Shown here: one piece after another, positions 25,365 through 49,849 of the stretch
Numbering within the stretch: the stretch's first letter is position 1
Layout: each line of letters starts with the position of its first letter
NCBI GenBank assembly: GCA_973895155.1
Contig: OZ316893.1
Location: 17,178,670 to 17,242,669 of the forward strand
Length of the DNA stretch: 64,000 nucleotides
Reading direction: 5' to 3'
Origin: Marsupella aquatica
Taxonomy: Eukaryota; Plantae; Marchantiophyta
The notes under the pieces: generated by a model
The model's database searches: none
What the model saw: only the letters and a program-made list of their open reading frames with translations
Told to the model about the DNA's origin: nothing
Translations under genes and position numbers: made by a program

Positions 25365-25373
25365 GGGGGAGGA
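25365..25373 (+). promoter_or_regulatory. Polypurine tract of element B
   Basis: GGGGGAGGA immediately before the 3' LTR. Confidence 0.8.
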
Positions 25374-27254: not shown

Positions 27255-29136
27255 CAATATTTTGCAATTAGTGGTCAACACTCAACTATGGCCACTAGGA
27301 AAATCATTCAGAGTTCCCAAACGCAACCATCTATGGTTGAGACTGCCAACCTCCTCAAATTCTGACTTGCAAGAATTGTCAAGGGGTCAACACCTATTAA
27401 GGTGTTGGTTGAGATTTCACATGCAAACAACTTGCAGGCTGAAGCGCATTGTTTCTCATCACCATTCATCAACCAAGTCAGGCATACAAGAATGCAATAT
27501 TCAAAAATGGATCAAACAGTTTGGCCAGTTCCATCAGGGAACTTGGCACAATCAGAGTTGTTGAATTTTCTTAAGACTGTAGTGAATGTCCTTGCCAACG
27601 ACTTGGTGACTGTCGTGATTATTGTGCACCCAAGTCTCTTGCTGACCAGAATTATTGAAGCTGTCACTGATCTACCTTCGAGTTATAATGCTCATCTGGA
27701 GTATGGAAGCTATTGGAAGAGTGCAAAAGAAGTCCGCTCATCGCATTTCATGTCGGGTATTATTGAGTCTATTGTTTTGCTTGGAGTCTCCTAGGAACAA
27801 GAACCGGATTGGGAAAAACATTTCAAAGGGTTTCAAGGTCATTTCTTGGCTAAATCTGTGGATCAGCTTGAGCTTGCAAGACTAGCCAATGAAGATTACT
27901 TTGGCCTTTCCAAGCAAGAGGTTGCAGCAAAGCAAAAATCTGCTCTTGGAAATCACTTGCAAAGACTCATTCCTTTTTGGACACCCGGTGGCAGAACCTG
28001 TATATCTAACATTAAGCATTGCAAAATTATCAAGGCAATCATTCTTCAATTTTCCAAAAAGGAAGAAATTGTATTTGACTTCTTTACTGGTGGGCAAGTT
28101 TTATTGAATGCCCTTCGTCTAGAAAGGGAATGTTTCTCTTTTTGTTTGGAAAGGGCGGATGTGAGACCTTACGGCTTATGTGGAGAATCTCAAGTCGTTG
28201 AAGGGTGTTGCACAATTCTCAAAATCCTTATGGAAACTTCCAAGAGGGGAAGGCAGCTCAACGCAAAAATCTAATGCAAGTGGGGCAAAGGAAGGGAGGC
28301 ACTATCATATCATTGGAACAATCTCCCAATTATCATAATTGTCTAGAATTTGATAACAGATTTTCTGATCCTTGTGTTGGTAGGATTAATGTTGGCAAAC
28401 AGATTTGCCATCCTTTGGAATTTGGTGAGGTCCAAATACCGATCTACCAATTAGGGAGTTTCAAAGGACCTCGATCTCATGGAGGAAGAACACCACGATG
28501 GTGGAATAGCTCTATCTCTTCCACAATCTCATAGCCCTGTGTGCAAGCCTTGTGTGGGGTCATTTGGCGAGGTGGACTCAATTGTAAATGATATCGCACC
28601 GGTCGTGCCTGAGGATCCTTCCGATTACCTTTGGGTTGTAACTTGAGTTCAAGAAGCCGTTAACATCATCAATCCATCCCCTCCCCATACTTGGGCAGAA
28701 AATTGGAGTCCCTACGAGGTTGAGTCTGTCATCAAACATTTTGGTAATATTGTCGTGGAACTTGTAGTGGAGCATGCAAATGAGGCAGGTGCCAATTCAC
28801 TCTATCCCACTTCTCACAACTTGAACAATGATATATGTGGCAATAGACTTTTGACTCAACCCTGACTTGGAACATGATTTTGTTTTGTCAACGTACAATC
28901 AATGGACGCGTCATGACTCACCGCAAGATGGCATGTCCAGGTCCTGAGCGATGGATAACTTCTGAAATTCTTAATGCTTATTTTGGTCTGATTGCTTCAA
29001 GAGCATAATCCACGGGCAGCGAGCTCCCGCAGGTTCATCTTTTTGATACTTGGTTCTATTCTGAACTTGTTCAAGGTGGATATAAGTATGAGGACGTCCA
29101 AACATGGACCTCAAAATTGGAGTACTTCTTAACTGA
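27255..29136 (+). pseudogene. Decayed, internally deleted paralog of the ParB-MTase-Ulp1 gene at 30850-35523
   Basis: YFAISGQHSTMATRKII, LVEISHANNLQAEAH.FSSPFI, EYGSY, EEIVFDFFTGGQVL, and Ulp1-region HLFDTWFY. Many stops. Confidence 0.9.
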
Positions 29137-29630
29137 TGTAGAGATGGTCATGGTTTGTGACGCCGATGACATGGTCCTTATTCTATAATCTGATTAACTA
29201 GGCTGTTGTATGCAAGGAGTAGCTATTGATATTGCATAACAATTAGCAAGCTGGCACGAATAAGGGCAATCATGGCGTTAAGAGTAGGGATAAATGTATT
29301 TCAGCTTGAAGACTGCACAACCAAGGCAAACACAATTGAGGTAGTCACTGTCAAGGCCATAAAGGAGAAATTGGGGAAGAGAGGATTCAGCTCTTCAAGC
29401 ATACCATCTTCTTGACAAGCAAGATGGAGCATGGAGGCTCTTCAAGACGCCGGTACGGAGGTAGGCGTGGTAATTCAAGGAAGCGAGTCTCCATAGCTGA
29501 ATATGAAGTTGTGGGGTATGGTGATTGTGCTCAGGATGAAATCTAAATGTCTTGGGTGTGTAGCTTCATTTTGTTAGTTAGGTTAGTGGTTCATAGTCTA
29601 GTCTTAGAATGTTAGGGAAATAAAAGGCTA

Positions 29631-30675
29631 TGTTGCGGGTGGTCGGCGACCATATCTCATTCAATACATCACCAAATCCGGATCTGTAAAGAGCATTGGA
29701 AAGATCTGGTCAAGTTGAGTAAAATCGATATAAAACACTCGGGAAATGGAGGTGTATTAAGGAAGATACGGCCTGATTAGTGTGACCGGTTAACTTGTGG
29801 CCGGAATTAGCAGATTCGGCTTCGGTTTCGGGTTAACCTAAGCTCGACCACGGCTTAGCTTATGTGAGCACGGCTTCAGCTTAGCTCATGTAAGCACGGT
29901 TTCAGCTTAGCTCATGTAAGCATGGCTTCAGCTTAGCTCATGTCAGCACAGCTTCAGCTTAGGCTTAACCCGGGTTTGGATTAGATTGATCCCGGGTTAG
30001 ACTGAACTCGGGTTTGGGTTAGCATAGGTAAGTTCGGGTTCGGGCTCAGCCTAGCCTAGGTTAGCGGATAGCGGGTAGCAGCCTAACCCGAGACCACGGG
30101 TTAGGTCTACTCGGGTTAGATAGGATAGCTAGATTAGCCGAACTCGGGTTAGCTATGTAACTCGGGTTAGCATAGCAGTGAGTACCCCCTCTCGGTTGCG
30201 GGGGCATAACTTTCTCTGTATTTGCCCAAATTGGCTATAATTGACCTCGTTGGAAAGAGGAGCTCAAGCCGCTTCCAACGCTGCTATCCACGCAGCAAAT
30301 GGTTGAATAGAGAAATCGGGAGAGGAGGTGCAAGCTCGCAAAAACCATGGAGGAGGGCCAAATCAGAAGTACATAGTCAATTCGAGATAGAAATAAAGTT
30401 GCGAGTTAGGGTTCAGTAGTTAGAGATAGTGGCGGCTCTGTTAGGGCTGGGATGGGGCTCCAACAGCGTAGTATCCACCCATTTGGGCTCAGTATGAGAG
30501 GATATAGAGCAGCCCCCCCGGTAGAGGCAGGGGGGACTTCAGTTGTGTGATCTCACGTAGACTGAGCAGCAGGGAGGAGCTCTGTGCAAGGAAGGCTGGG
30601 CTTGGAAGCTGTGTGCTGGGGAGAGCTTGGTTGTGCTATTACTCAGGGAGTAATCAGCCACGCTTCACAACAACA
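29631..30675 (+). mobile_element. Probable LTR (TGTTG...CAACA) of another retroelement
   Basis: 5-bp inverted ends, internal tandem repeats, and a TATA + CCCCCCGGTAGAGGCAGGGGG motif shared with the gypsy A 3' region. No TSD found. Confidence 0.5.
29868..29962. repeat. 26-bp tandem repeat, about 3.6 copies
   Basis: GCACGGCTTCAGCTTAGCTCATGTAA units at 29868, 29894, 29920 and 29946. Confidence 0.9.
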
Positions 30676-30849
30676 GTTGGCCAGGTTTGCAAGCTAGATT
30701 GTGGCTCTTTCTAGTAGGCAACACAATTGGGTTCTTTTCCCCCGAGACAGAGCCTTGGTGATAGGTGATGTGTTGGTGATTGTAAACTGTGGGGAGGATT
30801 TCAATTCAATTTGCGGTGAGCACATTAGGAAGGCTGAGACACTGATTGA

Positions 30850-33800
30850 TGGGCAGCAGGAGGAACATTTGAGTCAGAAAATGAGGATGACGGAGAGGAG
30901 GGAAGTGTCCAAGAAGAGAGCAAGAAGACTTTTCAGAATCGGGCGGGGTCAGAGAATGAGTCAGAGTCAACAAGTTTAGAAGGTGGAGTTGAACCAACCA
31001 ACGATGATGTTGAGAGTGGGGAAATTCAACTCCCCCCAGCAAAGCCTCCAATAGAGAAGCGATACGCAAAGACTTCAAAGGGAGTTTCGCCCAGGAAGGG
31101 GAAAGCTGGTGTCGTGTCAGAGTCATCCACACCCAGTGGGAAGAAAAAAGTAGTGGACAAAAAATCACCATCAGGGAAACTAGGCCGGAAGAAGGTTGAT
31201 TTTGACAAAACAAAAGAAGAAGCTAAACTACCTCGGAAGAGAGTGAAAGTCATTGATCAAGCAGATGAGCTGCCTGCGGCGAAAACAAGCCGCAAGAAGG
31301 TTCAACGGGAAGAACAAAAAGAAGACAAGAAACCATCTCGAAAGAGAGTTCTTGTTTCTGACCAGCGCGAAGTCGTGCCTCAAGTGAAAGGTGGAAAAAA
31401 CGTATCTCCGGTTGATAAACAAGAAGAGGCAACGTCTTCTCGAAAGAGAATTCAAGTTGTCGAGGAAGTGCAAGGAATCAAGGACAGAATACAAAAATCA
31501 AGCAAAGCAAGGAAAGTCGCTTCACCAGCAAAACCTGAGGAGGAGAAACCATCTCAAAAGTCTCGGGTTGGACAGAAATCTGCGTCGGTCAGGAAGAAAG
31601 TTGAAAAGGTCGAACCGGAGATCAGGACGCTGAAGCAAAAGGGAGTCGTAAAAGATCCTTCACCAAAGGGAAAGAAAAAAGCAAAACTTGATGTTGAATC
31701 AGTAGTTGTGGAATCAAGGGCAAAGCCTCCTAAGCGAAGGGGAACGACCACAGAGTCGGCTGAAATTGTTGTGAAAACTCCCATGGTTAGAGTTGTGGAG
31801 AAGAAGGCCCCAAATGTTGAGAAGAAGGTTGTCATCACCTCTCAAGCTGTCGTTCACAAGCCCAAGAAAGCAAAGAAAAATCAGGAAGCTGTGGATATTG
31901 ACGAGAACCCTAGTTCCGCGAAGCTAGTTGTTGACCGTGCTCGTCTGGAGACTGCAGAAAAAACATTGGAGTTGAATAAGTCTTGGTATTGTTTTGGGAT
32001 ATCCAAATTTTTTTCTGTCCCGATTGAAAACATCCATCCCCCTCCTGCAAAGATGAATGAGAGACTCCTCAATGAGGAGCATGTCAACCATCTTGCGCAA
32101 CTGATGATGACAAATGCAGGGCAAGAACCTTTACCTGCAGATTTGGTTCCTTACAAGATGATCGACGGAGTACCGAGTTTAATTGACCTTGCGGGAAAGG
32201 ATATTGACACCAAGAAGCTTGCGGAATTCAAGTTCTTTGCCATCAGTGGTCAACATTCCACAATGGCCGCCAAGAAAATTATCCGGAGTTCAAAGACCCA
32301 ACCATCTCTCATGCAAACAGCCAATTTGCTCAAATATCGTCAAGCGCAAATTCTCAAAGGGTCAACTCCGGTGAAAATTCTTGTGGAAATTTCACACGCG
32401 AACAACCTTCAGGCGGAGGCACATCGGTTTTCATCTCCATTTATTGACCAAGTGAAACATGCAAGAATGCAATACAATGATATGGGGCGACCAGCTCGTC
32501 CACTTCCATCGGGTCGGAAATCTCCAGAATTTCAGGTAGGTTCTCCATGAGAGTTGTGAACAAAATTCAGACACTTTGTCCTTCTCTCCTTTCTACGCGA
32601 GAGTCGTGTAGAGCCTTTCCAGTATTTTGGGATTCAAAACTTTGAGCAAGCTAACTTTGAGTTGTTTGGTCTTTCCTCTCAGGAGTATGAAACACTTGCG
32701 AAAGTTACGTTAAAGGTGAATAGCATTAGCGAGTACAATTGGATTTTTTTTGCTCCAGAGAAGCTCTACTCTTTATGGAGAGAGGTTTGCAATAATTGGC
32801 TCAAGGGTAATCTTTTGGATTCAACCGGACAAATGACTGGAAAATTGAAAGAAGCAAAACAGTTGACAGGGACAACATTCCGGGTTTTTGAGGGTGCCAT
32901 AGAATCCGACATCTTGGAAATCCTCCACAAAGTGAATTTTGGGGAGGCGCTTTTGATGAAAAAGAAACATGCTTTGACTGATCTTCCCGCCATGTCAGAA
33001 TTGGCAAGAAAAGAAAAGAAAACTGACAAACTTAAGGGGGCAATACTTCAATTTTATCGGGAGAAGTACGAAGGGGTTTTCTCGCAAGGATCAACTTGGG
33101 GTGATGTAGTTCAGCAATATAATTTCATTGATGAGGAATTGGATCGTTGTTGTGCAATGGTGGACACTGGATATTTCAAGAGCCTTGTGAAGGTGTCATT
33201 AAAAGCAGAGATGCCGGAGCCACTGAAAAATAGGTTGAGAAATATTCACCAAAAGAGGTTTGGCGGCTATCTCCATGCAAGAATGGATCCTTACCGAGTT
33301 TTCTATACTGGAAATCTGCTCGCGTCTGCTGATCCTCCTTTTGATTCGGCTAGCTGCAAGGAGTCAATATTGGCATCTCTAGCGATTGTTGATTTGACCC
33401 ATACTGGAAACCGGTTTGGACGCAGTCCAAAATCTTGAACTTCTTGAAGATCGTCGTGAATATCCCAATCTGGTAACAGTTGTTTTTTTGTTCGTCGTGG
33501 TATTATTCTTGCAAGAATAATTTAAGTTGTTTGAGATCTCCCAGAGAACTATAATGCGCACCTTGAATATGGTTCATTCATGAGGAGTTATTTGGTTAAT
33601 GCTCCTTCGCAACACATGAGAGGCAATGCGGACATGGTTCTTTTCCTTGGCGTCTCCCAAGATCAGGTTCCTGATTGGGAAAAGCATTTCAAGGATTTTA
33701 CCTGTCACTTTGTGTTGGAGGAGTCCGACCTCGAGGAGACAATCAAGCCAAGTCGAGAGGATTATTCCAATATTTCGAAGGAAGATATGCAGGAGAAAAA

Positions 33801-35523
33801 AAGGGACACATTGATCTCACGACTTGAAGGCCTTGTTCCTTTCAAATTGATGACTGGACGGTCATTCACATTGAATATTAAGCCCAGTCGCATCCTGCAG
33901 AGTTTTATTCATGCATTTTCTTCGAGGGAGGAAATTGTCCTGGATTTTTTCACAGGAGGGCAGGTATTGAAGAATGCATTGATGCTTGAGTGTGAGTGTT
34001 TTTCATTCTGCTCTGACCGTGAGGATGTCTCTGACCTCATGACTTATGCAAAGAATCTTAAATTGTTAGTTTTGGTTGCACAGTTTGCCAAATCATTGTG
34101 GAAACCTCCTGGCCTTGAAGGGAGTTCGACTCAGAACTCCAATGCTAGTGGAGCAAAAGAGGGCCAACATTATCAGATTGCCGGTATAGTTTTACATTAC
34201 GCCGGGGTGGAAGCGGAGCAAAAGTTTCTAAGTTCCATTGGGGAGATGAGAATTGGTCCATCAGTCGTTCCAATTGCAAGTTGCGAAGGATTTCCTCTTC
34301 TAATGGCTGAAGGAGGTTATGGTTTGGCAAATAATTCTGAAAACTTACAGGCAGGCACGGGGTTGATTGCGTTCAACAAAACTCTGGAAGATGTTGTGGA
34401 TGATGTCTCCCTATACACGTATCGTGTAGATCCTCAAAATTTGTTTGACCCTCCAGGGTTAGAGTGCAACAAAGGTGTTAAGCAATCTCTTCTGGTTGAT
34501 GCTTTAGTTCTTCGAAGTGGCCCAGTTTTTGATGATTGTGAGGCAAAAACTACACTCGAGGATGTCGAGAAGGGGGTGGTGGATTGTGGACCCTTAAAAG
34601 AGATTGTTGTGGAGGAGGTTGGGATTGTGGAAAAAGATCACACTCCGATTGAATTTCAATGCGATGACAATGTTGACTCTCGTAGCGCTGAAGTAACAGG
34701 ACAGAATGATAACTCATTTTCTCTCACATCGAATCTTCCTGAGGTGTCAGAGAGGCAAGTCGATTGTGCGGAGGCAACCAATGAGGCAGGTGCCAATTTC
34801 CTCTCTCTTGTCTCAAGTCATAAAGTTCTAAACATAAACAAATGTCCTCTCCCGTCTCCGGATCCAATGGATAACAAAACGAGGATTGAAAATTGCCTCA
34901 GTGATCTGTTGGATCAGGATGCGGTTCTAGTCAAGACTAATGGGTGCCTAGTAACTCGTGGACAAATGAGGTGCATGAGTCCTAGAAATTGGATAAGTTC
35001 CGATATTCTAAATGCCTACTTAAGTCTCATAGTGGAGAGGAATGAACATTTCGACAGGGAGCTTCTGAAGTGCCATGTGTTTGACACTTGGTTCTATACT
35101 ACACTGACGTCAAATGGCTACTCTTACCGATCTGTGGAGGCTTGGACTTCACGACTGAAATATTTCTTAATTGATTGTCATCAAATATTTGTCCCCATTC
35201 ACGAAGGTAGCGATCATTGGGCGTTAGTTGTGATTGACATGGAACACAAGTATTTAGAATATCTCGAATCTCTGCATAACAATAGGCCAGAGGTTCTTGA
35301 AAACTTAGCCAAATATGTCAAGGATGAAATTCAAAGCAAAAGTCACAAGCAAGTCTTAGCTACTCTATGGCCAAAACATAGTCCCAAGGACATCCCAAGA
35401 CAAACTTATTACTATAATTGTGGTGTGTTCGTTATGAAGTTTGCGAACTACCGTAGTTTGGACCTTCCTTTTGATTTCACAGGAGAGGACATAGATTTGG
35501 AGAGGAGAGAAATCATTTTTTAA
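30850..35523 (+). pseudogene. Multidomain gene: K/E-rich N-terminus - ParB/Srx-like domain - degenerate N6/N4 DNA MTase-like fold - Ulp1 (C48) SUMO protease
   Basis: VPIENIHPP..NERLLNEEHVNHL..FFAISGQHS (ParB-like). LAIVDLT..FSSREEIVLDFFTGG (MTase-like). WISSDILNAY..FDTWFY..IFVPIH..HWALVVID..RQTYYYNCGVFVMKF (Ulp1). Intron from ~32537; disruption near 33420-33580; 5' end lost. Confidence 0.75.
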
Positions 35524-35689
35524 GTCTATTCAGGAATAGATTAAGCTTTCCTCCGCAATACAGTGATTTCTGCATGAGACGCGTGTAGAGGGTGACAGAC
35601 GGGGTATTTGATTTCAAGGACTGACTTGACTTCAAATGGTCTTTGGTCAAGACTGTTCCAATGACTAACCATCCGGATTCGATATTTTT

Positions 35690-36866
35690 ATGTTTGTAGA
35701 GTTTGTTCCCAAACTCCACTCAGAGATCAAGCAAAAGCTCTTGATTTTTGACCTTAATAAAGTTTGTTTTGATTCCGTAAAGAGTAAAAGCTCCGGACCA
35801 TTTCGGAGGCTCACATCTGTGAGGGGCATTCACTGGGGAAGATGGGGCGGGATTTATGTATGTGGAGCGTCCAGGACTTCATAAATTTTTACAAGTGATT
35901 TTCAGGTATTACGATGTCGCGATTTGGACTTGCGCGGGAAGGCTGAGAACAAATGAAATGATGGATCTTGTTTTCAACGATGCTGAACGAAAGCAGTTCA
36001 AGTTTGTATTCACCCAAGAAGAAACATTTGACACTGGCTTTTTGAGGTCAGATATTACAGATGGGAAGACAAACATACTTCTTAAGGAAATCCAAACTAT
36101 TTGGGATCGTTTTGGCAATAGATATGGTCCGACAAATACTGTTCTCATCGATGACTCTCCTCTGAAGTGTTTCGCAAATCCAAATGTTAACACGTTATTT
36201 CCAGTTCCATTTGTTCACAACATGGGAGGCGACACTTTTCTAATGGAGATATTGCTTCCACTTCTTCAAAGAATGCACAATGCTTTTGATGTAAGACACT
36301 TTCTGAATGTTAACTACCCAAAATGGTCCACCTACAATAAGGGTGAAGCCCAAAGGAGGCATTGTGATATCTTTGCAGGACTCACTCAAGCCTGGGGGCA
36401 CCGCGTTGCTGGCATCGTCGATAATTTCACTGTCCTTGATCACACGGCAGACGAGATTTCCTGGGAAGTGAAGCATACCGTGCAAAGTTCGCCACCGGTG
36501 TAGGATATGAGTGACCGTGACATCAATTCAATTGCTAAAGGTCTACTTGGAGATGGTTATTCCGGCCCATATTTGCAAAATAAGCGGCAATTTGTTTGGG
36601 AAGTCCTAAAAACTAGGGACCTTACTTCTAAGTTTAAAAACTTGTATCCTAAAGACGCTTGCAACCGAGATAGAAAGTTTGATAAGTCAGGAAGTAGACT
36701 TACTTGCTCAAATATGTTTTGTAGCAACACACATTCAATGATCGTTATTAAAAATTTGGAGACTTGTAACATTGAGGGGAGGCCTATTACAAGTAAACAA
36801 TTGTTATGGACTTTTGTATGGTTCCCGTTAGTGGGTGACAATGAAAATGTGACATTACTCATGTGA
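35690..36866 (+). pseudogene. FCP1/SCP (NIF-family) HAD phosphatase-like gene
   Basis: KLLIFDLNK (motif I variant), ERPGLHKFL..YDVAIWTCA, LLKEI..IW, NTVLIDDSPLK..NP. Frameshift at ~35860 and stop at 36501. Confidence 0.85.
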
Positions 36867-37073
36867 CTATTCTCCACCAAATTCGTACGCCAAAAATGTA
36901 TTTTACATGGATTTGGAAATTTCAACTGGTGTTTAGGAAACTTGAAAGAGTGTTCTAGAAATTCCAGTTCCAAGTTTTGAAAACTTCATTTAAGTTTGTT
37001 GGATAATGTATTTATTTAATTTGGAAATTTTACCAAGCCACTTTGGAAAAAAGAATTTCCAGAATTAGTGAAA

Positions 37074-37538
37074 TCACTGATACATGCAATCGTCGTCCAA
37101 TCCAGCTTTGAACCTATCCTCATCCTGTCGAAACCCATCCTCTCGATCCAGAAAAAAATGAGGTCCGGGATAGCGACTCCGACTCTGGTCGTTCGGGATG
37201 TTCGAATCTGAAAAGCTCACACGTCCGGTGTCTGCTTGGATGTCTCTGAAAAAAGCTGTCCTTTCCACCCGATACACATTGGAAGGATCCGGGTCGTGAA
37301 TAGAGAACCTCTCTCGGAAAGGAAGTGGAGGCGAAGGATCACGTGACAGAAGGTGTCCAGTTCTGTGGCTAATACCCTCATCCGGGGCTAGCCACAACCT
37401 GTTCCTCTTGGTCGACGTCTCTGGGCACTGCGTAAAAGACAGAGTCAAATCTAAACCCAGATCTCTAATCAACCTCCAAACCATCGCCTTTGGCGGATTG
37501 CAGCTCTCCGATTTTGCTATTTGCTTCCCCTTATCCAT
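37074..37538 (-). CDS. Hypothetical 154-aa ORF (MDKGKQIA...)
   Basis: Open ATG-started frame within the cargo block; no recognisable domain. Confidence 0.35.
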   Translation of the reverse strand: MDKGKQIAKSESCNPPKAMVWRLIRDLGLDLTLSFTQCPETSTKRNRLWLAPDEGISHRTGHLLSRDPSPPLPFRERFSIHDPDPSNVYRVERTAFFRDIQADTGRVSFSDSNIPNDQSRSRYPGPHFFLDREDGFRQDEDRFKAGLDDDCMYQ

Positions 37539-37579
37539 TGAGTCAATGGAAACAACGAATGCAAAACTCAGGGAGAAGA

Positions 37580-37672
37580 GAAGAGGTGAGTCCGGGCAGA
37601 CCAGAAACGAAATGAAGGGAAGAGGTGAGTCTGGGCAGTGCACAAAAAAAATGAAGGGAAGAGGTGAGTCGG
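37580..37672. repeat. 39-bp-period repeat with core GAAGAGGTGAGTC, 3 copies
   Basis: Cores at ~37580, 37619 and 37658, just upstream of the 37538 ATG on the minus strand. Confidence 0.8.
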
Positions 37673-38372
37673 TGCCTCACAGAAACGAAAGGGAGAAATG
37701 CGTTTAGGGTTGAACAAACACGAAGTTGAACAAACCCAAAGTTGAACAAACACTACACTTTGAGAGAGTCCAAACAATCATATCAACCACAAACAAAAAT
37801 ACGTACAGATTGAAGGTATAATTATTCACCGTACAACTGTACGAGTACATGCATTTCTGATATCTGCACAAATATGCACTCAGGAAAGAGACTTATGGTG
37901 CGTCTATCTCCTTTAACGGCTCAGATCCGAACATCCAGTTTAATAGCGTCGGGCGCTAGTATAGGTTCCAAAGAAAACCTTAGAAATTCACACTCAACCT
38001 ACTCCAAGTCAGAAGACTCGGACTCGCTACTGCTAGACCTATCGGTAGACTTGGCTTCATCATCTATAAATTTGCTTCTAGGTCCATCGTTGAGTAAAGG
38101 CTGATGGATGAATTTCCTATCTGAACCTCTCCTTAACCTTAAGCCCTTACTCTCCCAAGTAAGTGTTCTCCTCTGTTCTTCTTTGCGTGCAGCATATTCT
38201 GCATACGAGGGCAACACGAAAGGCTTCTGAGGAGAAACGAGAACCTCCAAAGATTAAAACGTTCTTGAAGATTCCACTCCGATCTGGAAGAGGAACGGAA
38301 CCACATTAGAATTGAAAATGAAAATGGGACAGTTCCAGAATTGATAATGTAAAGTGAAGTAGCTTACGGGCA

Positions 38373-41230
38373 TTACTCAAAAGAATCCGAATCTTTTGTT
38401 TCTCCCGTCGTGTGCCTCTCCTTCTCTTTTCCTTCATTTTCCTCTCCTTGTCCTCCTGAAGCATCATCTCCAATAGCATCTCCCTCCTCTTCATCTTCAG
38501 AGTCAAAATTTAAGACAGAGCAAACTTTATCTTTTTGTTTTCTTCCCACATCTTTAGCGGGAGACGAGGAATTGACATCTTTTGGAATCAATAACTCCAT
38601 CCATGTCTTTTTCGCAATCTCAACAAACTCTTTTCGGTTTTCTATACCAAGAATAAAACGACCACAATAGTCACCAGCAACAAATGTACTTCCCGAACCC
38701 ACAGTCCAGTCCATGACAATGTCACCTGGCCGAGTGATTAACTCTAACACAGATTGCATGAACCCAACGAACAAGCGTCCATTGCTAGCAAACGCTACTG
38801 GAGGAGTTGGATCCTTCCTCACACTCGGGAGACCAATAAGGTTAGTGATAGAAGGATCTTCAGTTGCAGAGAGGGGTCAAAACTTGGGGTCCTTTGGAAC
38901 CTTAACCTTTGACGAAACACGACTGAACAGATCCAATCTCAATGTGAAAACCTGTGAAATCCCAACAACTTCCTTTGTTAAGATGCCGACGATCCAACCA
39001 GAAAATCATTACAATCATGGCATAACAATGAATTTTGGATAGCGCCAGGCGCTAACAAAGAATATCCCCTTAACCAAAGGGTATATGAAAACATTTTTAG
39101 CTAGCGCTCGGCGCTAACAAAGGACAGCACAAAGAGTGAGAGAATTTACCTTACAATCACTTCGGGCCATGTACATTGGAACTCCCATAACCACGTTCAC
39201 GGTTTTCACACATTGAAACTTTTGAGACTCCTGGCTCGCGGCGATGACCTGCGAGATCTGATCATACTCGCCGGTATGCAAAATGGCCAATATACCATCA
39301 TCTGCTAGAAAAGGGTCCATTGCGCGAAAGAATGAACCAACAATTCTGTGATCTGGGGAATTCCATTTTGGAGACTTATTCTCTAAAAGGGATGGGCGCA
39401 GTCCAGTTGGGAGGTAAATGAATCCAGCATCAACTCCAAATGATCTTATCTTTCCTCCTCTTATGACTCCTTTCTCCCTTAGACCAAGCAAGACTAGGTC
39501 TTTCACCCACTTCTCCACATTTGACACCCAAGCTGGTTTCTGCTCTTTTGTGAACACACTCTCAAAGAAGTCCATTACGCTGGACTCAACAAAAACATGC
39601 CTAGAAGTCTTAGACTTGAACTGTCCAACATCTCGTTGAACACCAGCAGAACTGGTCTCCATTGCCATGTACAAGCGATACAGATATCTCTTGGCTCGCG
39701 TCCGGTTGCGAATGGTATAGTCTTCCTTGTCTCCGTACTTGGACTGCCAAATTGTGCTAAAAAACTTTGCCTTCACTATTTCACCGTATGTCTTGAAATC
39801 ATTGGTGATGTTCAAGACCAAAGCTTCAACGTCTCCACTCCTCCTAGCGTCAGACGATCAGCAGGTAGGATCGACTGGACTTGCGAAAGAGATGTCTGTA
39901 AGATTGCAATTGCAATTCCTTCCACCAAACTCCACATGTGCCATGTATGACACCACTATTTAACAGGGTCATCATTCACACTCGGGGGATGGTAAAATTG
40001 TTTTCTGAGCTCGGGTGTACAGTGAGCGACAAGAAGAGTACAACGCAGTTGTGGATCCAAGTAGGAGACAACAGTGAACAGACGCGCGCGGTCCATTGTA
40101 CAAACTATAGAGTCCGGCTTCTTTTCGCGTTTGTTCCTCTCCGTAAGAATGTACATTTCTGCAGTCGCAATCACCAAACTTTGGGCTTATCAGGGGGTAA
40201 TCTTGGATGTCTTTATGCTCCACTCCTTCATTGCCTCCTTCATCATGGCAGCATACCGCTTACCAGTCTCTTCAGATGACCACGGGCGACCTTGACTTGT
40301 CGTAGCAGCCAAGTCAAGCTTAAATTGAAGTGAATACAACTTAATCTTGTTTTCACACAAGATGTAAACCAATGCTTCCAATGGCATCTGCTTGGTATAC
40401 CAAGACCCCTTTCTTGTCTTGGCACAAACAGTTTGAAATCGCTTGAAGCTGCCGGGGTCGATGATCGGCTTGTAGGCCTCCAAGTCATGAGTTAAAATCC
40501 AATTGATTCTATTGGCATCGAGAATCCACGATGGTTCCACCACAGCTTGCCCTAACCTGTAAGATATAATGGCAAATATTAGCGCCTGGCGCTAACTAAC
40601 CTTGCAAAAATCAAGCGCAATCGACCAAATTCAATAGCATTTATGCAACTTGAGGAATACTTACTGGTTCACCGTGTGCATAGCCGCTTCAAACTCAACT
40701 AGAGAACCTTGATCTCCCTTAAAAACAGTGCATTGAACACGCGGATGGTACTTGATATTGTCTGGATTCTCATTTGTTACTTGGGTCCACGAGTAGAGTC
40801 GATGATTCCCGTCAAAAACACAGAACATCTTATCCTTCAAAATGTGGAAATCTGGATCAGTAGCGCATTCTGCTTCAAACAAGTCGTTCTGGGCAACCCA
40901 AACAGCATCCCAGGTCTCCCAAATTTTAGGCGTGCAGAATTGAATGACTCCTTCTGAATCCGTGGGCTGGACGTAAAACCACATCCCAATTGAAGAGTTG
41001 TACCCAGAGCTCCGAAATGAATCCTTGAGCTTATCGATAGATGCACTATTTTTCTGTAAAGTCCGAACGATTTCCATGTGAACAAGCCGACAAAGAGGGA
41101 TACACGGCGGCTCTTTCTTCTCCCCCCTGAAATTGACTCCAAATAACATTGCGTATTTCTCGATCACAGCATCCATGGACAGAACTCCCTCGCCCCCGTC
41201 CTCCATCGAAAAATCTATGTAAGACTCCAT
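38373..41230 (-). pseudogene. ParB/Srx-like + beta-class N4/N6 DNA methyltransferase-fold gene (exons 41230-40665, 40556-39150, 38951-38373)
   Basis: IPLCRL..IVRTL..SFRSSGY..FCVFDGNHRL (ParB). VDAGFIYLPTG..FFRAMDPFLADDGILAI (motif IV-VI region). ITRPGDIVMDWTVGSGSTFVAGDYCGRFILGIE (motifs X-I-II). Both GT-AG introns preserve the frame. Several premature stops and one frameshift. Confidence 0.85.
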
Positions 41231-44200
41231 GATGCCTCATTTTGGCTTTGGAATCGCTTGACTAATGTTTCGCAAAGAGTTCGACGCAAACGAACGAGTG
41301 ACTCTCCGAGTATAAACTGATCCGGAGAATGAGGACTCGGATGTTTCAGAATGGCCAGGAGAATGATTCTCCATGTTTGTTTAAGATGCACACACATGCG
41401 GAACCCCACCGCAACGTGCTTCTCGCGTGATGCAATGTTTCTTGTGGTGCTGTACCGATATGGACGAATGATTGACAATGACCCTAAACGTGCATAGAGG
41501 TCGTTCTAACGATCAAGGAAGACACTATCGCAAAAAGATCTTATCTGATATACCCTGTGGCAGACCGACATGTATGACAAGTACACATAAAAAAGCACGA
41601 GCATCCAAAAGCAGACCTACTAAAGGTTGACACTTGTCACATTTTAACTCATTTATAGGTACTCGTGAATATATTTATCCAGGAATTTGTTATAAATTGT
41701 AACGATAAACGGTCAAAGTTACTGTTTAAAAAGACCATTTATGTCAATATTCTACTTTGATCTAATATTAGCGCCTGGCGCTATTATTATGCTAGACTAA
41801 AATATATCTTGAAATAAAGGATTTTAATAATAGCGCCTGGTGCTAGTAACATTGTACTAAAAAATCATGCGAATGATTGGACTGAAGCGAGAAAGTTTTT
41901 GTAATAAACGGCTTCTATTTCTATCAATTTTATGAAAGTGCCAGGCACTATTTTTCTTTTAGTCTCAAATAGGGCTTAAATGTGTAGATTTCAATAATAG
42001 CGTCCGGCGCTAGTAACGAGACACTTCAAAATGGCTTAGATGTTTGGACCCAAAATATGCGAGTTTCTATAAATAATGACCGTTACATCTTGACATTTTT
42101 ATCAATTTTATGATAGCGCCTAGCGCTATTATTATGATAACTTCTACTCCAGCTCAAATGGATCGATTTTAATATTAGAAGAGGGTAATATTGTCGTCTG
42201 CCATAAATAAGATGCTATTTCCAAGGAAACCCGATACATTTCAGCTTAAATGTTGGCATAATGAGTAGCTGTTGTAAGATGTTAACCTGTGTCAGTAACC
42301 AAAATGGCCGTTGATCTTTGCTTTTGTTGTTCATTTTTGGGCTCTTTCAGATGTGGAAAACGCTAGCGCCTGGCACTACTATATTACCCCGTCGGTTACA
42401 ACGTCAAAACAATTAATTCAACAGTAACTATCCACCGAATTGATGGTTTTGTCGTTTCTTGAACGGTAAGAAAATCCGTACCCAACGGATCCTATAACCG
42501 CTCGACGGCTCTTTCCATTTGAGACTTGGATTAAGAAGAAACCCTCAACCATACAATCTAGCTTCATTTTACCATGTATCATTATTTTATATAGTTGGTT
42601 ATCTTTGGGGAGTTAGAATGTCTCGCATTATTCGAATAACGTGTCCGAATACAGGTGACGTTGTGACGATCCCTGTGTCGATTTCCAAAACCACAAAACA
42701 TGTTAGTGATAATTACCTGTGTGGAAGATTTGGGGTGACGGGAAAACATATTTTGAGTGTCAGAACTTTGAACGATGGGCCCGCTCATTTTGATATTGAA
42801 GCGGAGGACGTTGTTTGGAATCTCGAATATGGCGTGGAGTACTTGATTTTCATTCAACTAAGGGACATCGTTCAGGTCAAGGTGGAGAGGCCTCAGGTGG
42901 CTCACGATGTGATTGACCTTACGTCCGACGCTGAATGCTCTAAGGGTTCTCCACCAATCTCAAAGGGCGGTGAGGTCAAGAAGGAGGGCGGCAGTACCAG
43001 TTTGTTGATGCTCCAGGTACCCCCCATATTGATTGCGTCGGAGGGGTGTGATGATGGAGACACTCTAACTCGTCCTGTTCTGGTTGTGTACAGAAGAAGC
43101 GCACTTGATGCCTTGTTGAAGTCAACTGGACAAAGTGAGTTATCGCGCTTTGTTAGGTCTGAGGCATTCATTCACAAACAAGTTGAATGCTTACTTGTAG
43201 AGTACAATGGGAATACCATATTTGAGCTTCCACCTGTTCAAGGTGTTGGCTCGAAACAGGGATCGTCTGCAAAACATGGATCGATCCAAGGATTGCTACC
43301 TCTGGACTAGAATCTTTCCTACTTTTGCTAATGTCGTTCCGAAGAAGATGTGGGAGTTTGGGAAAGTAAGTTGTAGTGGTTCTCTCGAATGCTGAAATAG
43401 AGCATGTGAGTTTTACACCAGGACTCAAGTCTGAAACTGTAATGGATGGGATGGGACCCCCAAGCTCTCTGGTCAGCATTGTCCTGGGAGGTTGATCGAT
43501 GTTGGAGGAATTGTTTGTCGCTATTGCCTTCAAGTTCCATTTTGTGTTGAGTCTTGTCCAGCAAAAATGTTTTATATGTACCCGCAAGTTTTGATCGAAA
43601 ATGACACTGCAAAACACATGTCACGACTTGCAATCCATATGGGGGTGCACAACCATCCATGTTGGAAGGTCTGGTCTAGAAGTGCTGAGAAAATAGCAAT
43701 AGAAGAGATACGGAGACAGCATGAGAAGTCTCCTTCTTCTACACCGTGCATTTTGAAAAATGAGATCACTGGATCTTTAATGGATGCCGTAAGTGAGTCT
43801 GTGGATGACATTTCAAAGCTAGAAGAATCAGAAATCTGGAAATCACTTATGCTCGTTTCAACACCTCAGAAGTTTTCTGCGTTATGTAAGAGCGTTCGTA
43901 AAGATCAGGTTGGTCAAGGTGATTTGGAATATCTGGTTTGCATGCAGAAGAATGTTACGTTTCCTTTTCTCCAAAGATATCTTCTTCCTGGGCAGGGCTG
44001 TAAAGGTGATAGAGCACATATTTTCAAAATGACTATATCAAAGGTCATGGATCGGGAGTAGATTTACTACGTCAGATGAAGAAAGGGGGGCCTCTAGAAG
44101 GAGCATGGGTGAGCTTTGATGTGATGAAAAGGATGTCCAAAGAATGGAGTACTTTTAGTGCACATGTGTATGACCATAACTATCGAGCTTTGTGCACAAT

Positions 44201-46636
44201 ATTTACTTGTGAACTCAAAGTAGAGGACACTGCATCGCTTGAGAAAGCTTGGAGGTTGATGATCGAAGTCGCTTTGGAGAACGGTTTAAAGGGCGTGGAA
44301 ATCCATGGTTTCATGGCAGATAACGCTCAAGCAGGATGGATAGCGGTTAGGAATGTCTTCTTTGATGGCCATCCAAACCCGGAGAGAGCGATCGGATGCA
44401 TTCCACTTTTATCAGTCTTTGCATCGGCACTCTATCAAAGGAGTACTTGAAGAAAAACGTGCTGAACATCGAATCCTTTGGGACAAGTTGCGCAATGCTG
44501 CTTCATTTGTGGAAGCCTACAGGGTTTCACGAGAGATTGATTCATGGTGGAGATCTGGAAATTGTATTCCTGGGAAACTTAGAATGTTGCAAGGATGGAT
44601 TGCTTGGTGGGTTGTGAAGTGGCGTCAGTGGGGAAACTTCATACGTTTGGTGAGTCAATGTATACTAGCGCCTGGCGCTAGTATTAATCTCCCTTTTCTA
44701 ATTGTGATCTTTACTCATGTTTTTTGCCAGCGCCGGGCGCTAACGTACAAATAGCTTGATAGCGTCTTCAATCTTCACAATCATCATGAAAAACATTCAT
44801 ACCTTTCGTCCGCCCATTTTGAAGTTCCACTTTATTTTTTATTTGATATATTGTACTGAATTTGACAAAACTCTTTTTCAGAGCAAAAGTGCACTTGAAG
44901 GGGGGATGATTCCCAATTGCACTGGTTCTGAAGCTGTTCACGGAATCATGAAAGCATGGTAGGGAAAGAAAACAGTTGGTTTGTTCGAAGGATGTAAGAC
45001 CGATCACAACAGAGCAATCTCACAAATAGCAGCCTATACAGCATATCGTGAAAGGCTCCATCGGGGTACCGGTCCAACAGTGTTTGAATTGGCTTTTCGT
45101 TCGGCTGACCAGGCAGGGTCCCCAAAACTCTTCGAAGAAGCCTCTAATATGTTACTCGCAAATGCAGCTGAATTTAATTTGGAGAGGGATTCTCCGTTGA
45201 ATGGGGATTTTGTGACAAAGTCTATGAAAAGAAAAGGTCCAGCGACCGGGAATGTCTCTCCACAAGACTCCCATCGACATGACACGGTTCTCATAACTAC
45301 ACCAAATACCCGAGGTTGCAAGAGGAGAAATTTGAACTCATCCGAGTTTGAGCACATTCCGATACTTAGAACTCCTCCTTCGAATCCAGTTATCGATTTG
45401 TCTGAAAGTGGCTCTCCAGTTTCCCATCATGTCACTCAATCTTTCAAAGTTCCAGAAAGTGCTCTGAACACCACTCCATTCATTCTTGTAGACACTTTGC
45501 TTTTTGAAGTGGACATTGTACCTGGGTCTTGGCATCTGCGGAGAGTTTCCAGACACGGTGCTGGACCACAGTGTAATGGGACGTTGTCTGGAAGTTGTGA
45601 TAGAGATGAGTGTCGTAATCAAATTAAGAAGGTCGGATATCCTTCAAATGCAGGGGTTTTCGGAATAGTCGTCAAAGGTTACCGCTTATTCAGAGGTGAA
45701 CACCATCCAGAGCTTGTCTGGTTCTGCCCCACTCGTGATTGGTGGAAGAGCCGCCCTCGTCGAGGTATTGTGAACCTCCCTACTTTCCCAGACTTTTTGC
45801 CAGTACAGAAAGGCACTCATCTTTCAAGTCTGGAGTTGAATTTCCTTCAAGAGCAGGGCATTGAAGTCTTGAGAGGAGGTGCTATTTCACGTTGTCCTTC
45901 TCCATTTGAACTGAGAATCAACATTGACGTTTTTCCTGAAAAGATCGATCTTGCACAAGTTAACATCCGTTTTTGAACGAGAAACGGGCGTGCGATGAGC
46001 TCCAGATCAAATCTCACTTAGGAATATCGTAAAAGGATTGAATCAACAACGAAAGAAACAATGACTTTGATCAAAACTATGGAAGTTTCATCTGGAAATT
46101 CATACGGGAAACGATTCCAGATACGCACACATGCACATTTACGAACTGCAAATACTTACTGGGTGCAGATTTGCATTTTCCCTTGTTGCTCTTGTGAAGA
46201 TTTCTTTCATCGACATTCTTGAGGGAAACCTTTCATGCCATGTAAACACTTGTACTGGGTTTACAAAGTTATCTGCAAGCTTGATCCTGTGGACAATATC
46301 CTCGCAAGCCAACCGATTCTTACCATTGCGGAACTGCGTTATATTCTAGGGAGGCAGAATGCTGATGGTTTATAGGAAGGTTTAGTATTCTAGTTTACGT
46401 TCAACGGGTATGTAGGACTTGTTGTTTCGTAACGGTAACTTTGTTTTGGTTAGCGCCCGACGCTAGTAAACAACATTTGGTTTCTTTTCAACACGGCTCA
46501 ATCTTTTGTGGGTTTCACAAAAAACTTAATTTGTTTTTACAATTTTACGGATGTGTAAATTTCATTGTACGGGTAACGGAGATTTGTTTGTATTCAATCG
46601 TCACTTGGCCTTCAGTTTTGTTAGCGCCCGACGCTA
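39040..46636. repeat. Dispersed 15-bp palindrome TAGCGCCWGGCGCTA (at least 11 good copies)
   Basis: Starts at 39040, 39102, 40580, 41769, 41831, 41936, 41998, 42114, 42364, 44666, 44728, 46451 and 46622 (0-2 mismatches each). All lie in introns or intergenic DNA. Confidence 0.92.
42618..46375 (+). pseudogene. Mutator-like transposase: GCM-like Zn domain - DDE - SWIM
   Basis: VSCSGSLEC.N..C, CRYC..C..CPAK..IHMGVHNHP (GCM/WRKY-like). WVSFDVMK, FMADNAQA, SDAFHF, TGSEAVH (D, D, C/DxxH, E). CSCEDF..PCKHLYWV (SWIM, ~46184-46260). Intron 44650-44881; several stops and frameshifts. Confidence 0.8.
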
Positions 46637-47734
46637 GACTCCATTTCCTTACTTGGTTGCAGTTTGTAGTTTCCAGGTCTGAACGTGTGGATTTCTTTTG
46701 CATGCATTCTCGAGGATGACCTTTTCTTGCCTTATAAACCATTATCCTCTGATCATTCCGGTAGATGGTGAGAGGGTATTTTGTTAATGATATTTTGTAA
46801 CGGTATCAAATGCTTGGTTAGGACTAAGCGCTAGTAAAGGCATCTTCCGATAATTGTCGTTTTCCCCATTGTTTTGAGTTTATGTTGAATTTGACATCTT
46901 TGGTTTGGTCCAAAATTAAGCCTTTTTTGTGAATGATAGTACCAAGTCTCTTGTTTTGTTCCACTATTTTTCCTGTTATGATCATCACTGTTTCCTGTTT
47001 CCTGTAACGGAGGTCGGGCCCGAATTTTCGAATGTTTTTTTTATTGGTGTTGCTCACAACAGTACGGATGATGACAATTCCTTGAATGTTTTTCCTGATG
47101 TGAGTAAAAACATTGCTGATAACAGTAAAACTTTCCTGATATGAGGAAAGTGTTTGCTCGTATCAGTAAAAAAATCTCTTGTTTCCTGGCACGGTGTAAA
47201 GCCTCGGATAGTATAGGAAAATTATAAATGCCTGTAGTATAACAAATCTATGAAATGAATGCATGACCATGCACATAGGAAACATATTATTAGACAAAAT
47301 AAAACTAGGATATCCAAAACGGAACCATTGGATCCCAATATGTAATGATGGTAGTACTCTTTCCTTGAGAAGAAAGCGGCAAGGTTTTAATGAGGCTACA
47401 TCAATGGGAATACCAATTAGATAATCTAGGGTTAAAACTGTGGTTACTTTACACACCCATAAACTAACCAAGGGGGAGTGTTGTAAACCATAGTTTACAC
47501 TTAACCCTAGAATAAGGTTACCTTTAACCTTATATGATGTAACCCAATGGCTACATAATGCCATACCTTAATGGAGAGAATGATCTTTTATCATGACAGA
47601 AAACCTTCTCTCACAACAATATATGATGAAGTTCTTTATTGAACGCGAATAAAGTTGGCATGAGTATGGTATCAATGTCTTCATATAATTTGTATTTAAG
47701 CATGTATTTCATTTTCATCATGCTTCCCATATCC

Positions 47735-47937
47735 CATGACATATATTATGACCTTGACATTTGTGCCTCGCTTAAACATTTTTTCTCTCATGGACATGTT
47801 TTGCTCATCTCAATATCTTTTATCACCTCGACATATTTATATCACTTGACATCCTTTTATCACCTTGACATATTTATATCACTCGGCATCTTTTTATCAC
47901 TCGACATCTTTCGTGCAACACACGAGCATGGGGCTAG
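47735..47937 (+). mobile_element. Helitron 3' end
   Basis: CGTGCAACACACGAGCATGGGGCTAG|T preceded by degenerate CACCTTGACATC repeats; paralog of 48590-49084. Confidence 0.7.
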
Positions 47938-49084
47938 TACTACTATAATACCCTATCCGGCCAAAAGTGGATGTAGTTGGTTTACAAAATCACTTTTGGA
48001 GGGAAGATTCAATGACCCTTGTATTTATAAGCTGTTTTATCCTAGCCTTTCATTTGTCAAAAACATTATCTCTAACCCAAGCAAGACAAAGTATTTTGGT
48101 ATGCACAAAGATTCTCTAAGAAGGGGGCATGATGGCATACACTTTATGTGAATGCCATGTGTTGCCATTGGAATGGGGCACTTGGAACACCATTATGAGG
48201 GGATAATTAGGGACTAGGAGACAAAGGTCAAAGTAGGGAGGGGAATTAATGATACACCCATGGGTGAAGGGATGAATAGTATCATACCCTCCCATAGTCC
48301 CATGAGTACAAGATAAGGGATGAGACAAAGTGGAGCAAAGGAAGGTGAAAATACAGATAATAATAATAAGGCAATACGAGGAAAAAAGGAGGAGAAAAGG
48401 GACATCATTGCCTTTCATTGGGTTTTTTTTTCAGGGGAGGGGGGGGGGAGAAGGGAGAGGCAGCCCAAGAGAAAGGGGGAGAGGGAGGCAATGAGGAGTA
48501 CGGGGGTTGTCACCCTCCACCTAGGGTTGTGTAAATATGCATGTTTATGTTGTCCTCACCTATCTCCCTGATCACTTTTGCAACAATCTCTCTTTGACAT
48601 CTTTCTCTTCTATGGACATCTTTTCCCAACCTCAGCATAGTTTTCTTGCCTTGACATCTTTTAATCACCTCACATCATTTCTCCCCTCCATATCTTTTCT
48701 CCTCTCGACTTCTTTTGCACTCCTTGACATCATTTTGTCTCCTTGACATTTTTTCTCAACTTAACATTTTATCTTTTTCTCATCTCGTCATCTTTTTCTC
48801 ACCTTGACATCTTTTCTCACCTTGCCATCTTTTATCTCATCTTGCCATCTTTTTCTCTCCTTGAAATCTTTTCTCACCTTGAATTCTTTATCTCATCTCT
48901 CCATCTTTTTTCTCACCTTGACATCTTTATCTCATCATGAAATCTTTTTCTCTTCTCAAAATATTTTTCTTGCCTTAACATCTTTATTCACCTTGACTTC
49001 TTTTCCTCACCTCAACATCTTTTTTCAGTTCAAGATCTTTCTTCACCTTGACATCTTTTGTGCAACGCACGGGCATGGGGCTAG
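47938..49084 (+). mobile_element. Non-autonomous Helitron
   Basis: 3' hairpin GTGCAACGCAC..GGGCAT followed by CTAG|T (49081-49085). The 5' region TACTACTATAATA resembles plant Helitron starts. Degenerate ~17-bp repeat array at 48590-49060. Confidence 0.65.
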
Positions 49085-49849
49085 TATTCACATATTTTGC
49101 ATTGATAAATATGCCCTGGTTTAGTAGATGCATCACAAGTTCACCAAAGTAACCAAGAGAATTATATACAAAAACCGTGACATATTTATGGACCCCCATT
49201 AGGGGTCTCTTGCAAATTCTCTGGCACGGGAGCGCGCCCTGTCAGCACAGATGTAGACAAACAAGGCAAGACCATTTTGAAATGAAAATTACTACCCACG
49301 TCATGTTTGTGGCCATTTTTGTGTAACTTTTGGGTCGCCATGTTGTAAATTCTAAGTGTAAATATAAATACATACAATATTTTTTGGTATTTTTTAATGC
49401 TAACTGTTATATTTACTTTTAGGTTTTTTATAAATTCAATAAATGTGTGAAATGTTGTGGACTCATATAATTTTTTAATGTTATAACCATATAAGTAGAT
49501 GTTTAGAAGCAATTATGGTAACTACCCATATAACTGATTAAAAATAGTTAGACAATTTACTCATCTCAAACAACAGTAGTGCGTACAAGGGGGAGAACAT
49601 CACCATAGCATTGTTCTCTATCTCTTCTTCCAGTCGAGCACATTGGGATTTTTTGCCCAGAAGCAAGTTTACAGTTTTCCAAAATAAGCGCTGCCTAGCT
49701 AATACTACTTTGTGTTCAATCCACATTGGAATCCACATATGAAAGTTGTACAATCAAGGGACATGTTGGGCTCTTACATCGCACATTGCGCTTAAGTGAA
49801 AATAGATGATTCACGAGGTCCTCGGGGGCCTCACTCTAAAAAAGTCTCA

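Follow-up and report, generated by a model that had tools for sequence, protein, structure and literature searches.

Helper proteins with ParB-like and DNA-methyltransferase domains have so far been described on giant DNA transposons of brown, red and green algae. The multi-copy element Sola1-1_Ec32 of Ectocarpus (21.5 kb) is reported to encode, on the strand opposite the transposase, a 1104-aa protein that combines a ParB-like domain with a prokaryote-type N4C/N6A DNA-methyltransferase domain, and its authors suggest that accessory proteins of this kind could bind the element that encodes them and modify it (PMC12477816). In the Plavaka elements of the red alga Bostrychia (17–19 kb), the accessory gene PAG2 is reported to encode PF01555 and SET domains and PAG3 a ParB-like domain with a 2OG oxygenase; arrays of inverted repeats adjoin the ParB-like gene, and most copies are degenerate (10.1101/2025.02.11.637652). 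Here we analyze a locus on the minus strand (38373–41230) of a 64,000-nt stretch of Marsupella aquatica contig OZ316893.1, hereafter the window, in which a ParB/sulfiredoxin (Srx)-like domain is joined to a beta-class methyltransferase-like domain that lacks the catalytic motif IV, (D/N/S)PP(Y/F). The locus appears to be a decayed three-exon gene of a multi-copy unit of at least 17 kb and, to judge from its motifs, it probably descends from a gene for a non-methylating, S-adenosylmethionine (SAM)-binding and DNA-binding helper of a large DNA transposon.

The N4CMT protein of bdelloid rotifers, the product of a host gene, is reportedly a demonstrated writer of N4-methylcytosine (4mC) that carries the motif TSPPY. 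MpDN4MT1a/b of Marchantia, also host-encoded, carry TSPPY and are reported as demonstrated 4mC writers (10.1101/2021.02.12.428880). METTL14 and the methyltransferase (MT) domain of the DIRS1 retrotransposon have substituted catalytic residues and are regarded as inactive binders (PMC4738411).

In a Pfam scan of five pieces of the gene, only the last piece (38376–38876) matched a non-noise family, namely PF01555 (N6_N4_Mtase), with 35.0 bits (cut-off 26.7; E = 1.8e-08) over profile positions 170–221, the motif X/I end of the domain. Exon 3 also matched the solved beta-class enzymes DpnA (E = 9.6e-06), CcrM (2e-04) and MboIIA (0.04), the phage DNA-methyltransferase profiles of PHROGs (2.8e-10) and the DNA methyltransferase models of NCBIfam (1.9e-05), while relatives from the liverwort Calypogeia score 14.8–23.5 bits against PF01555, below the cut-off. 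The motifs quoted in the initial annotation of the locus, which was made from the bare sequence, are all present on the minus strand, with the motif IV site preceding motifs X and I, so that the beta-class order proposed there is borne out by the coordinates (Table 1).

An exhaustive HMMER search of 1.84 billion representative proteins with the exon that encodes FIYLPTG recovered 37 proteins at E ≤ 0.001, including 20 at ≤ 1e-10 and one at ≤ 1e-30; a word-based search with the same exon among proteins of similar length returned a single match. The motif IV site is covered by 36 of the 37 (P0032 stops short of it; 24 sequences were scored by script and 12 by eye), and [DNS]PP[YFW] is found neither in any of these 36 nor in the window copy. 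Family-wide, the site reads LP(T/N)G, with exactly LPTG in 14 of 36 relatives; 33 of 36 keep P as the second residue (the other three read MGAG, WSTN and LLTG), and the residue in the D/N/S position varies between Y, A, F, S, C and I. Downstream of the site, VPxWNxWD and DDGFLAVLHSGE-like segments are conserved in the family. Three relatives (P0007, P0011 and P0014) extend into the C-terminal half of the domain, and in each of them both D-W-[TS]-x-G-x-G and G-[IL]-E are preserved. As judged from these alignments, the family as a whole has lost the catalytic motif, with the SAM-loop motifs retained. The earlier observation of a preserved SAM motif next to an altered catalytic motif is supported, and the family consensus, which had been put forward as a check on whether intact copies have DPPY or SPPY, shows that they are missing throughout.

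For the N-terminal domain, an AlphaFold2 model of exon 1 built on an alignment of 14 sequences has a mean predicted local distance difference test (pLDDT) score of 84.5 and a predicted template modelling (pTM) score of 0.79. VIA-align superimposed 99 residues of this model on Caulobacter ParB (7bm8_A) with a root-mean-square deviation of 2.7 Å and a Z score of 7.9, which sits just below 8 and marks a good match, not an overwhelming one; all 32 rows listed are ParB, Noc, KorB, PadC, Srx, SerK, SbnI or GmrSD entries. The first 25 Foldseek matches listed from the PDB are all ParB, Noc, KorB, sulfiredoxin, PadC, SbnI or serine-kinase (SerK) structures, and the best among them is ParB 6sdk_A (probability 0.99); none of the PDB matches of the model has E < 0.001. 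Exon 1 has 13 relatives of 36–72% identity, and D-G-N-H-R-L is invariant in all 14 aligned sequences. Phosphate-loop motifs of the GxxR type are typical of this fold, with GERRxR in ParB, GGCHR in Srx and DGQHR in DndB, and the region around DGNHRL gives weak matches to the TIGR03187 DGQHR domain of NCBIfam (E = 0.21) and to a ParB-like partition protein of PHROGs (E = 0.032). The ParB/Srx assignment of exon 1, suggested earlier from its signature motif, is thus supported; the support comes from the fold of the model, not from the curated sequence models.

Since exon 1 has 13 relatives with an invariant DGNHRL and the FIYLPTG exon has 37 relatives, the motifs are not products of chance, and the proposed fusion of a ParB/Srx-fold domain to a beta-class methyltransferase-like domain is supported. 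Twenty of the relatives were looked up, four of which are entered as 'unnamed protein product [Calypogeia fissa]'; these four liverwort loci lie on four different large contigs of 5–67 Mb, and the other 16 stem from metagenome or run assemblies. At the level of sequence comparison, the architecture is conserved across a sparse eukaryotic family. The horizontal acquisition that had been suggested is not shown, as a recent event, by these data: among pattern matches to the ParB-like exon, 0 of 32 in prokaryotic genome contigs and 0 of 112 in viral contigs were confirmed as relatives. A word-based search for exon 1 among longer proteins found none.

Two other sequences resemble exon 1. A GC-rich metagenome contig (L005) contains an intron-less 662-codon open reading frame (ORF) at 707–2692 of its plus strand with the string 'FTVFDGNHRL', sharing 39% identity with the ParB-like exon across 42 residues, which may be a distant, differently built relative. 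The fungal DUF3723 protein, a Starship cargo, is a look-alike of exon 1 in the protein atlas (score 0.95); the Starship paper assigns no ParB to it, and we treat the resemblance as a lead only.

Read through its lesions, the gene comprises 850 codons. The column at which exon 1 ends is conserved, as 9 of the 13 exon-1 relatives end exactly there and the other four continue into unrelated sequence. At intron 1, the ORF of locus L003 picks up the homologous frame again after a gap of about 100 nt, and the ORFs of both L003 and the metagenome locus L002 align to exon 2 in one frame. At intron 2, the ORFs of most relatives stop or diverge right after the homologous '…QV', and the Calypogeia gene models P0007 and P0014 join across it. 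These comparisons support two introns in a predicted three-exon gene. No joint spanning either intron was found in the contigs of four public runs (X1–X4), which we take to be DNA because introns and intergenic DNA are covered like exons. A four-intron model with additional introns at 40263–40159 and 39979–39896 was ruled out, as the ORFs of L002 and L003 align straight through both. The initial description of the gene as intron-containing therefore stands for the two introns backed by relatives, and the remaining breaks of the frame are stops and a frameshift.

Several comparisons indicate that the window copy is no longer able to encode its protein. The uninterrupted 208-codon ORF of L002 aligns in a single frame to 40399–39845 (tblastn, E = 1e-23) and crosses three of the four in-frame stops of the window copy. 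Most other copies carry an additional A after 39827, which was counted, in depth units, in 350 of 350 in X1, 196.6 of 196.6 in X3, 7641 of 16954 in X2 and 2166 of 5180 in X4. Because an uninterrupted relative aligns through the stops and most copies keep the base at 39827, the window copy is, on this comparison, a pseudogene with four in-frame stops and one frameshift. An intact spliced gene, as first envisaged, is not present in the window, and some of the segments then taken for introns must be lesions. Each of the four stops could have arisen from a sense codon by a single C-to-T or G-to-A change, in agreement with the general A/T-ward bias of this copy: it has A where most copies have G at 93–114 sites per run and T where most have C at 87–113 sites per run, as opposed to 14–23 reverse changes, and it carries at least 10 indels relative to the majority copies. 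Such a pattern would be expected if the copy had been silenced and were decaying through cytosine deamination. The window locus is a dead copy with no function of its own, and what follows on function concerns its family.

The region 38000–41600, comprising the exons, both introns and the flanks, is matched by 229–638 contigs per run at 90–100% identity. In the surveyed region (28001–48000), the depth per contig varies within a single range between about 31.3 and 48 kb, namely approximately 180–230 in X1, 110–200 in X3 and 390–690 in X4, and hundreds of variant contigs cover this block in the four runs. Contig coverage thus shows the gene as a member of a multi-copy repeated unit spanning at least 17 kb. 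The adjoining segment 28668–31335 is 10–100 times deeper than the repeat unit in all four runs; it is a terminal region common to many shorter derivatives or else a repeat of far higher abundance. At 39648–39651, the matches to contigs of three runs break off from both directions, the contigs continuing into unrelated sequence, which implies that the dominant copies carry an insertion or rearrangement without counterpart in the window copy.

Head-to-head with the gene lie broken transposase-like ORFs, interrupted by indels at 44034 and 44381 that are absent from most other copies. A Pfam search of these ORFs found nothing, and the protein-atlas features of 44013–44450 point to Mutator-like element (MULE) clusters with a score of 0.91, which is a lead only. 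The coordinates of the gene, its lesions and the other features of the unit are collected in Table 1.

Table 1. Features of the ParB/methyltransferase-like gene and of the surrounding repeated unit (window coordinates)
Feature	Position	Strand	Remarks
Second gene of the repeated unit	30850..35523	+	Methyltransferase-like motifs and C-terminal Ulp1/SENP protease
Stop codon	38375-38373	-	End of the gene
Exon 3	38376..38951	-	Motifs X and I, rest of the methyltransferase-like domain, then acidic tail
FILGIE	38657-38640	-	G-I/L-E segment downstream of motif I, in exon 3
DWTVGSGST	38711-38685	-	SAM-loop motif I, in exon 3
In-frame TGA (lesion), exon 3	38879-38877	-	Site spanned by tblastn alignments of P0007 (38954-38625) and P0014 (38954-38526)
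Intron 2	39149-38952	-	198 nt, GTAAAT…CACAG; two palindromes inside (39040, 39102), 62 nt apart
Exon 2	39150..40556	-	1407 nt in the window copy; linker region and N-terminal half of the methyltransferase-like domain
FIYLPTG (site of motif IV)	39422-39402	-	In exon 2
1-nt loss (frameshift)	between 39827 and 39828	-	Extra A after 39827 in most other copies
In-frame TAG (lesion)	39958-39956	-	L002 has a residue at that position
In-frame TGA TAA (lesion)	40192-40187	-	Inside the tblastn alignment to the uninterrupted L002 ORF
Intron 1	40664-40557	-	108 nt, GTAAGT…TTACAG; one palindrome inside, 40580-40594
Exon 1	40665..41230	-	189 codons; ParB/Srx-fold domain; ATG at 41230
DGNHRL motif	40813-40796	-	In exon 1
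Region between the gene and the transposase-like ORFs	41231..42497		1.27 kb, divergent intergenic; six palindromes (41769-42378)
Transposase-like ORFs, broken	42498..45976	+	Head-to-head with the gene; DDE-transposase-like segments by eye

The unit is further marked by a 15-nt palindrome, TAGCGCCWGGCGCTA, which occurs in 7 copies with at most one mismatch (0.00 expected) and in 14 copies with at most three mismatches (0.40 expected; maximum of 2 in 100 shuffles). Its core CCWGG, named in the initial annotation as a classic site of bacterial methylation, is a candidate methylation site here. All 14 copies fall within 37944–46636, with none elsewhere in the 64 kb, and all are non-coding, being located in both introns, the divergent intergenic region, the gaps between the transposase-like ORFs and the downstream DNA. 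In four cases two copies form a pair with a spacing of exactly 62 nt (39040/39102, 41769/41831, 41936/41998 and 44666/44728), and the DNA between the paired palindromes is not conserved. Two of the pairs share one local tandem repeat, which leaves at least three independent pairs.

A second gene of the unit (Table 1) is also, though more weakly, methyltransferase-like. Its N-terminal part has a lysine-rich region followed by an 'ISGQHS' segment that is possibly ParB-like, a resemblance noted by eye and without statistical support. It contains the ADPPF motif in 'LLASADPPFD', and its 'EIVLDFFTGGQ' segment is a weak match to motif X/I of DNA-methyltransferases (PF01555, E = 0.012–0.041; NCBIfam, 0.17; PHROGs, 0.039). 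The residues with methyltransferase matches also give weak ubiquitin matches. The protease domain is strongly recognized (Peptidase_C48, E = 4.9e-28; SENP2, 4.1e-34). No significant similarity between the two methyltransferase-like genes was detected with either comparison made (hhalign probability ≤ 0.2 for both family profiles against the ORFs of the second gene; best blastp E = 0.97). Should it hold in intact copies, a transposon-borne fusion of a methyltransferase-like part with Ulp1 would be unusual. Between the two genes lies an ORF for an NLI-interacting-factor-like phosphatase (35823–36503, plus strand; E = 3.2e-15).

Short tandem repeats are found at 37575–37695 (three 39-nt units) and at 47751–49086 (diverged units of about 150–330 nt). 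Elsewhere in the window, two direct repeats of 858 nt (3598–4454 and 25366–26223), 94.6% identical, flank ORFs for reverse transcriptase, RNase H and integrase; the segment 3598–26223 is a Ty3-type long terminal repeat (LTR) retrotransposon, within which pieces of a CACTA-type transposase (Transpos_assoc, DUF4218) are nested. Taken with the liverwort relatives, these elements indicate a genome of plant type.

In the explanation that we favor as the probable one, a protein of this family would still bind SAM, because motif I and the G-I/L-E segment are intact, and would be unable to methylate an exocyclic amino group, because (D/N/S)PP(Y/F) is missing. It would recognize the DNA of its own element, possibly at the palindromes, and may mark, shield or regulate that element, by analogy with the algal accessory proteins that pair ParB with a methyltransferase. 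The repeated unit itself would be a cut-and-paste transposon, for which the transposase-like ORFs offer a lead only. The initial annotation had left the choice between a divergent writer and a catalytically dead DNA binder; with motif IV lost in the entire family, the second branch is favored and the first is not.

Several results weigh against this explanation. SAM binding, DNA binding and the lack of catalysis are all inferred from sequence. Pfam does not recognize exon 2, and a search of exon 1 and its 13 relatives with a threshold of E ≤ 10 assigned none of the 14 to a family, PF02195 included. The model of P0007 falls below a pLDDT of 50 beyond residue 272, that is, in the C-terminal half of the domain, and its N-terminal half (residues 98–271) reaches Z scores of 4–5.3 to SAM methyltransferases, within the range of common arrangements. 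Depth was read without single-copy calibration, so that copy number means 'many variant copies' only. The atlas score of the MULE lead is reached by shuffled proteins 4–10 times in 100, and a search for terminal inverted repeats and target-site duplications at 26.2–31.6 and 46.8–48.2 kb yielded none, the longest inverted match being 11 nt. The palindrome is absent from all five related loci of other organisms (5/5); if it is a binding site, it would be specific to the lineage of the window. Other searches returned little: Foldseek with the P0007 model gave nothing at E up to 0.001, and of two profiles searched against PDB sequences one had no match and the other had one, a spurious hit to eL24 (E = 0.22).

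Among the other explanations, the family might be catalytically active, with LP(T/N)G and the conserved VPxWNxWD forming an unconventional catalytic loop, and write N6-methyladenine (6mA), 4mC or another mark on the element. The SAM-loop and G-I/L-E motifs are retained, the replacement motif and the P-x-W-N-x-W-D that follows it are conserved, which shows selection on the pocket region, and the algal counterparts are predicted to be active (PMC12477816). We nevertheless consider this unlikely, as the sequence (D/N/S)PP(Y/F/W) occurs in 0 of 36 relatives and the D/N/S position is variable (Y, A, F, S, C, I). To our knowledge, no characterised amino-methyltransferase works without motif IV. METTL14 and DIRS1 domains with such substitutions are regarded as inactive (PMC4738411). 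Also unlikely is a eukaryotic ParB/parS-like system, in which a ParB-fold nucleotide-binding domain with a silent SAM-binding fold would load on the palindromes paired at 62 nt and shield or mark the transposon against host silencing; such a protein might partner the DPPF–Ulp1 protein as its regulator.

A closer association of the two proteins, with the LPTG protein as the non-catalytic partner of the DPPF–Ulp1 protein in a heterodimer resembling that of METTL14 with METTL3, acting on the element, seems improbable to us. Beta-class enzymes such as CcrM act as dimers, both genes lie in one repeated unit at similar depth, and the neighbor has ADPPF and a poor motif I (DFFTGGQ), whereas the LPTG gene has a good motif I without motif IV. 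However, the methyltransferase reading of the neighbor is weak (E = 0.012–0.17 in three libraries), the same residues give the weak ubiquitin matches, the two genes have no significant similarity to each other, and the motifs in the decayed copies of the window may differ from those of intact ones. Similarly improbable is a domesticated host gene that merely lies among transposons; the palindromes would then be part of a small unrelated repeat or belong with the transposase. The introns are conserved over relatives of 36–72% identity, the Calypogeia models are annotated as genes, and the palindromes could be subterminal transposase sites. Yet the whole 31–48 kb block is repeated at similar depth with flanks and introns included, the window copy is dead, Calypogeia has four or more dispersed loci, and the same architecture is reported from algal transposons (PMC12477816; 10.1101/2025.02.11.637652). 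We regard the locus as part of a multi-copy unit with transposase-like ORFs and not as a host gene.

The preservation of the SAM loop with the catalytic motif replaced throughout suggests that the useful activity of the helper may be binding rather than writing. A defined protein family together with a defined palindrome offers a handle on how large transposons deal with host silencing. In full-text searches of the available literature, no description of a land-plant version of such a helper was found. We regard the locus as a variant of the known theme, the new aspects of which are the family-wide loss of the catalytic motif and a host of a plant-type lineage related to a liverwort family; relative to the Plavaka genes, a further variation is the fusion of the two domains in one protein. 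The unit also contains the second, methyltransferase-like–Ulp1 gene.

Compared with the proteins demonstrated to methylate DNA in eukaryotes, MpDN4MT1 and N4CMT, the family is likewise a eukaryotic one of the bacterial beta-class amino-methyltransferase type, and one of those hosts is a liverwort as well. In contrast to them, it is repeat-borne, and TSPPY is absent from the window copy and from all relatives; the link to the Marchantia and rotifer 4mC writers drawn in the initial annotation therefore fails (10.1101/2021.02.12.428880). Phage and prophage proteins with ParB_N and N6_N4_Mtase domains, and the solved enzymes DpnA (5hek), CcrM (6pbd) and MboIIA (1g60), are alike in domain pairing and beta-class order, and exon 3 aligns to their motif X/I region. 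The phage and solved beta-class enzymes carry DPPY, unlike the family described here, which also has spliceosomal introns. With METTL14 and the DIRS1 domain the family would share a methyltransferase fold that is kept while the catalytic residues are substituted, and the DIRS1 domain also resides on a mobile element, but these proteins belong to other clades (MT-A70 and PCIF1-like) and have no ParB-like domain.

Like the putative transposon described here, the Plavaka elements are large and have PF01555-type and ParB-like accessory domains, repeat arrays and decayed copies. In Plavaka the domains are placed in two genes with other partners, whereas the gene in the window combines them in one protein without the catalytic motif, and its neighbor has an Ulp1 domain. 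Sola1-1_Ec32 of Ectocarpus, in turn, has both domains in one polypeptide, on a large multi-copy element and opposite the transposase; the gene described here faces ORFs whose transposase-like motifs were recognized by eye. The Ectocarpus element belongs to the Sola1 superfamily and its protein is predicted to be an active writer, whereas the unit in the window has a MULE lead only and motif IV is replaced throughout the family; here the genome is of plant type, with relatives of the gene in a liverwort, and the proteins of the two elements were compared by description only.

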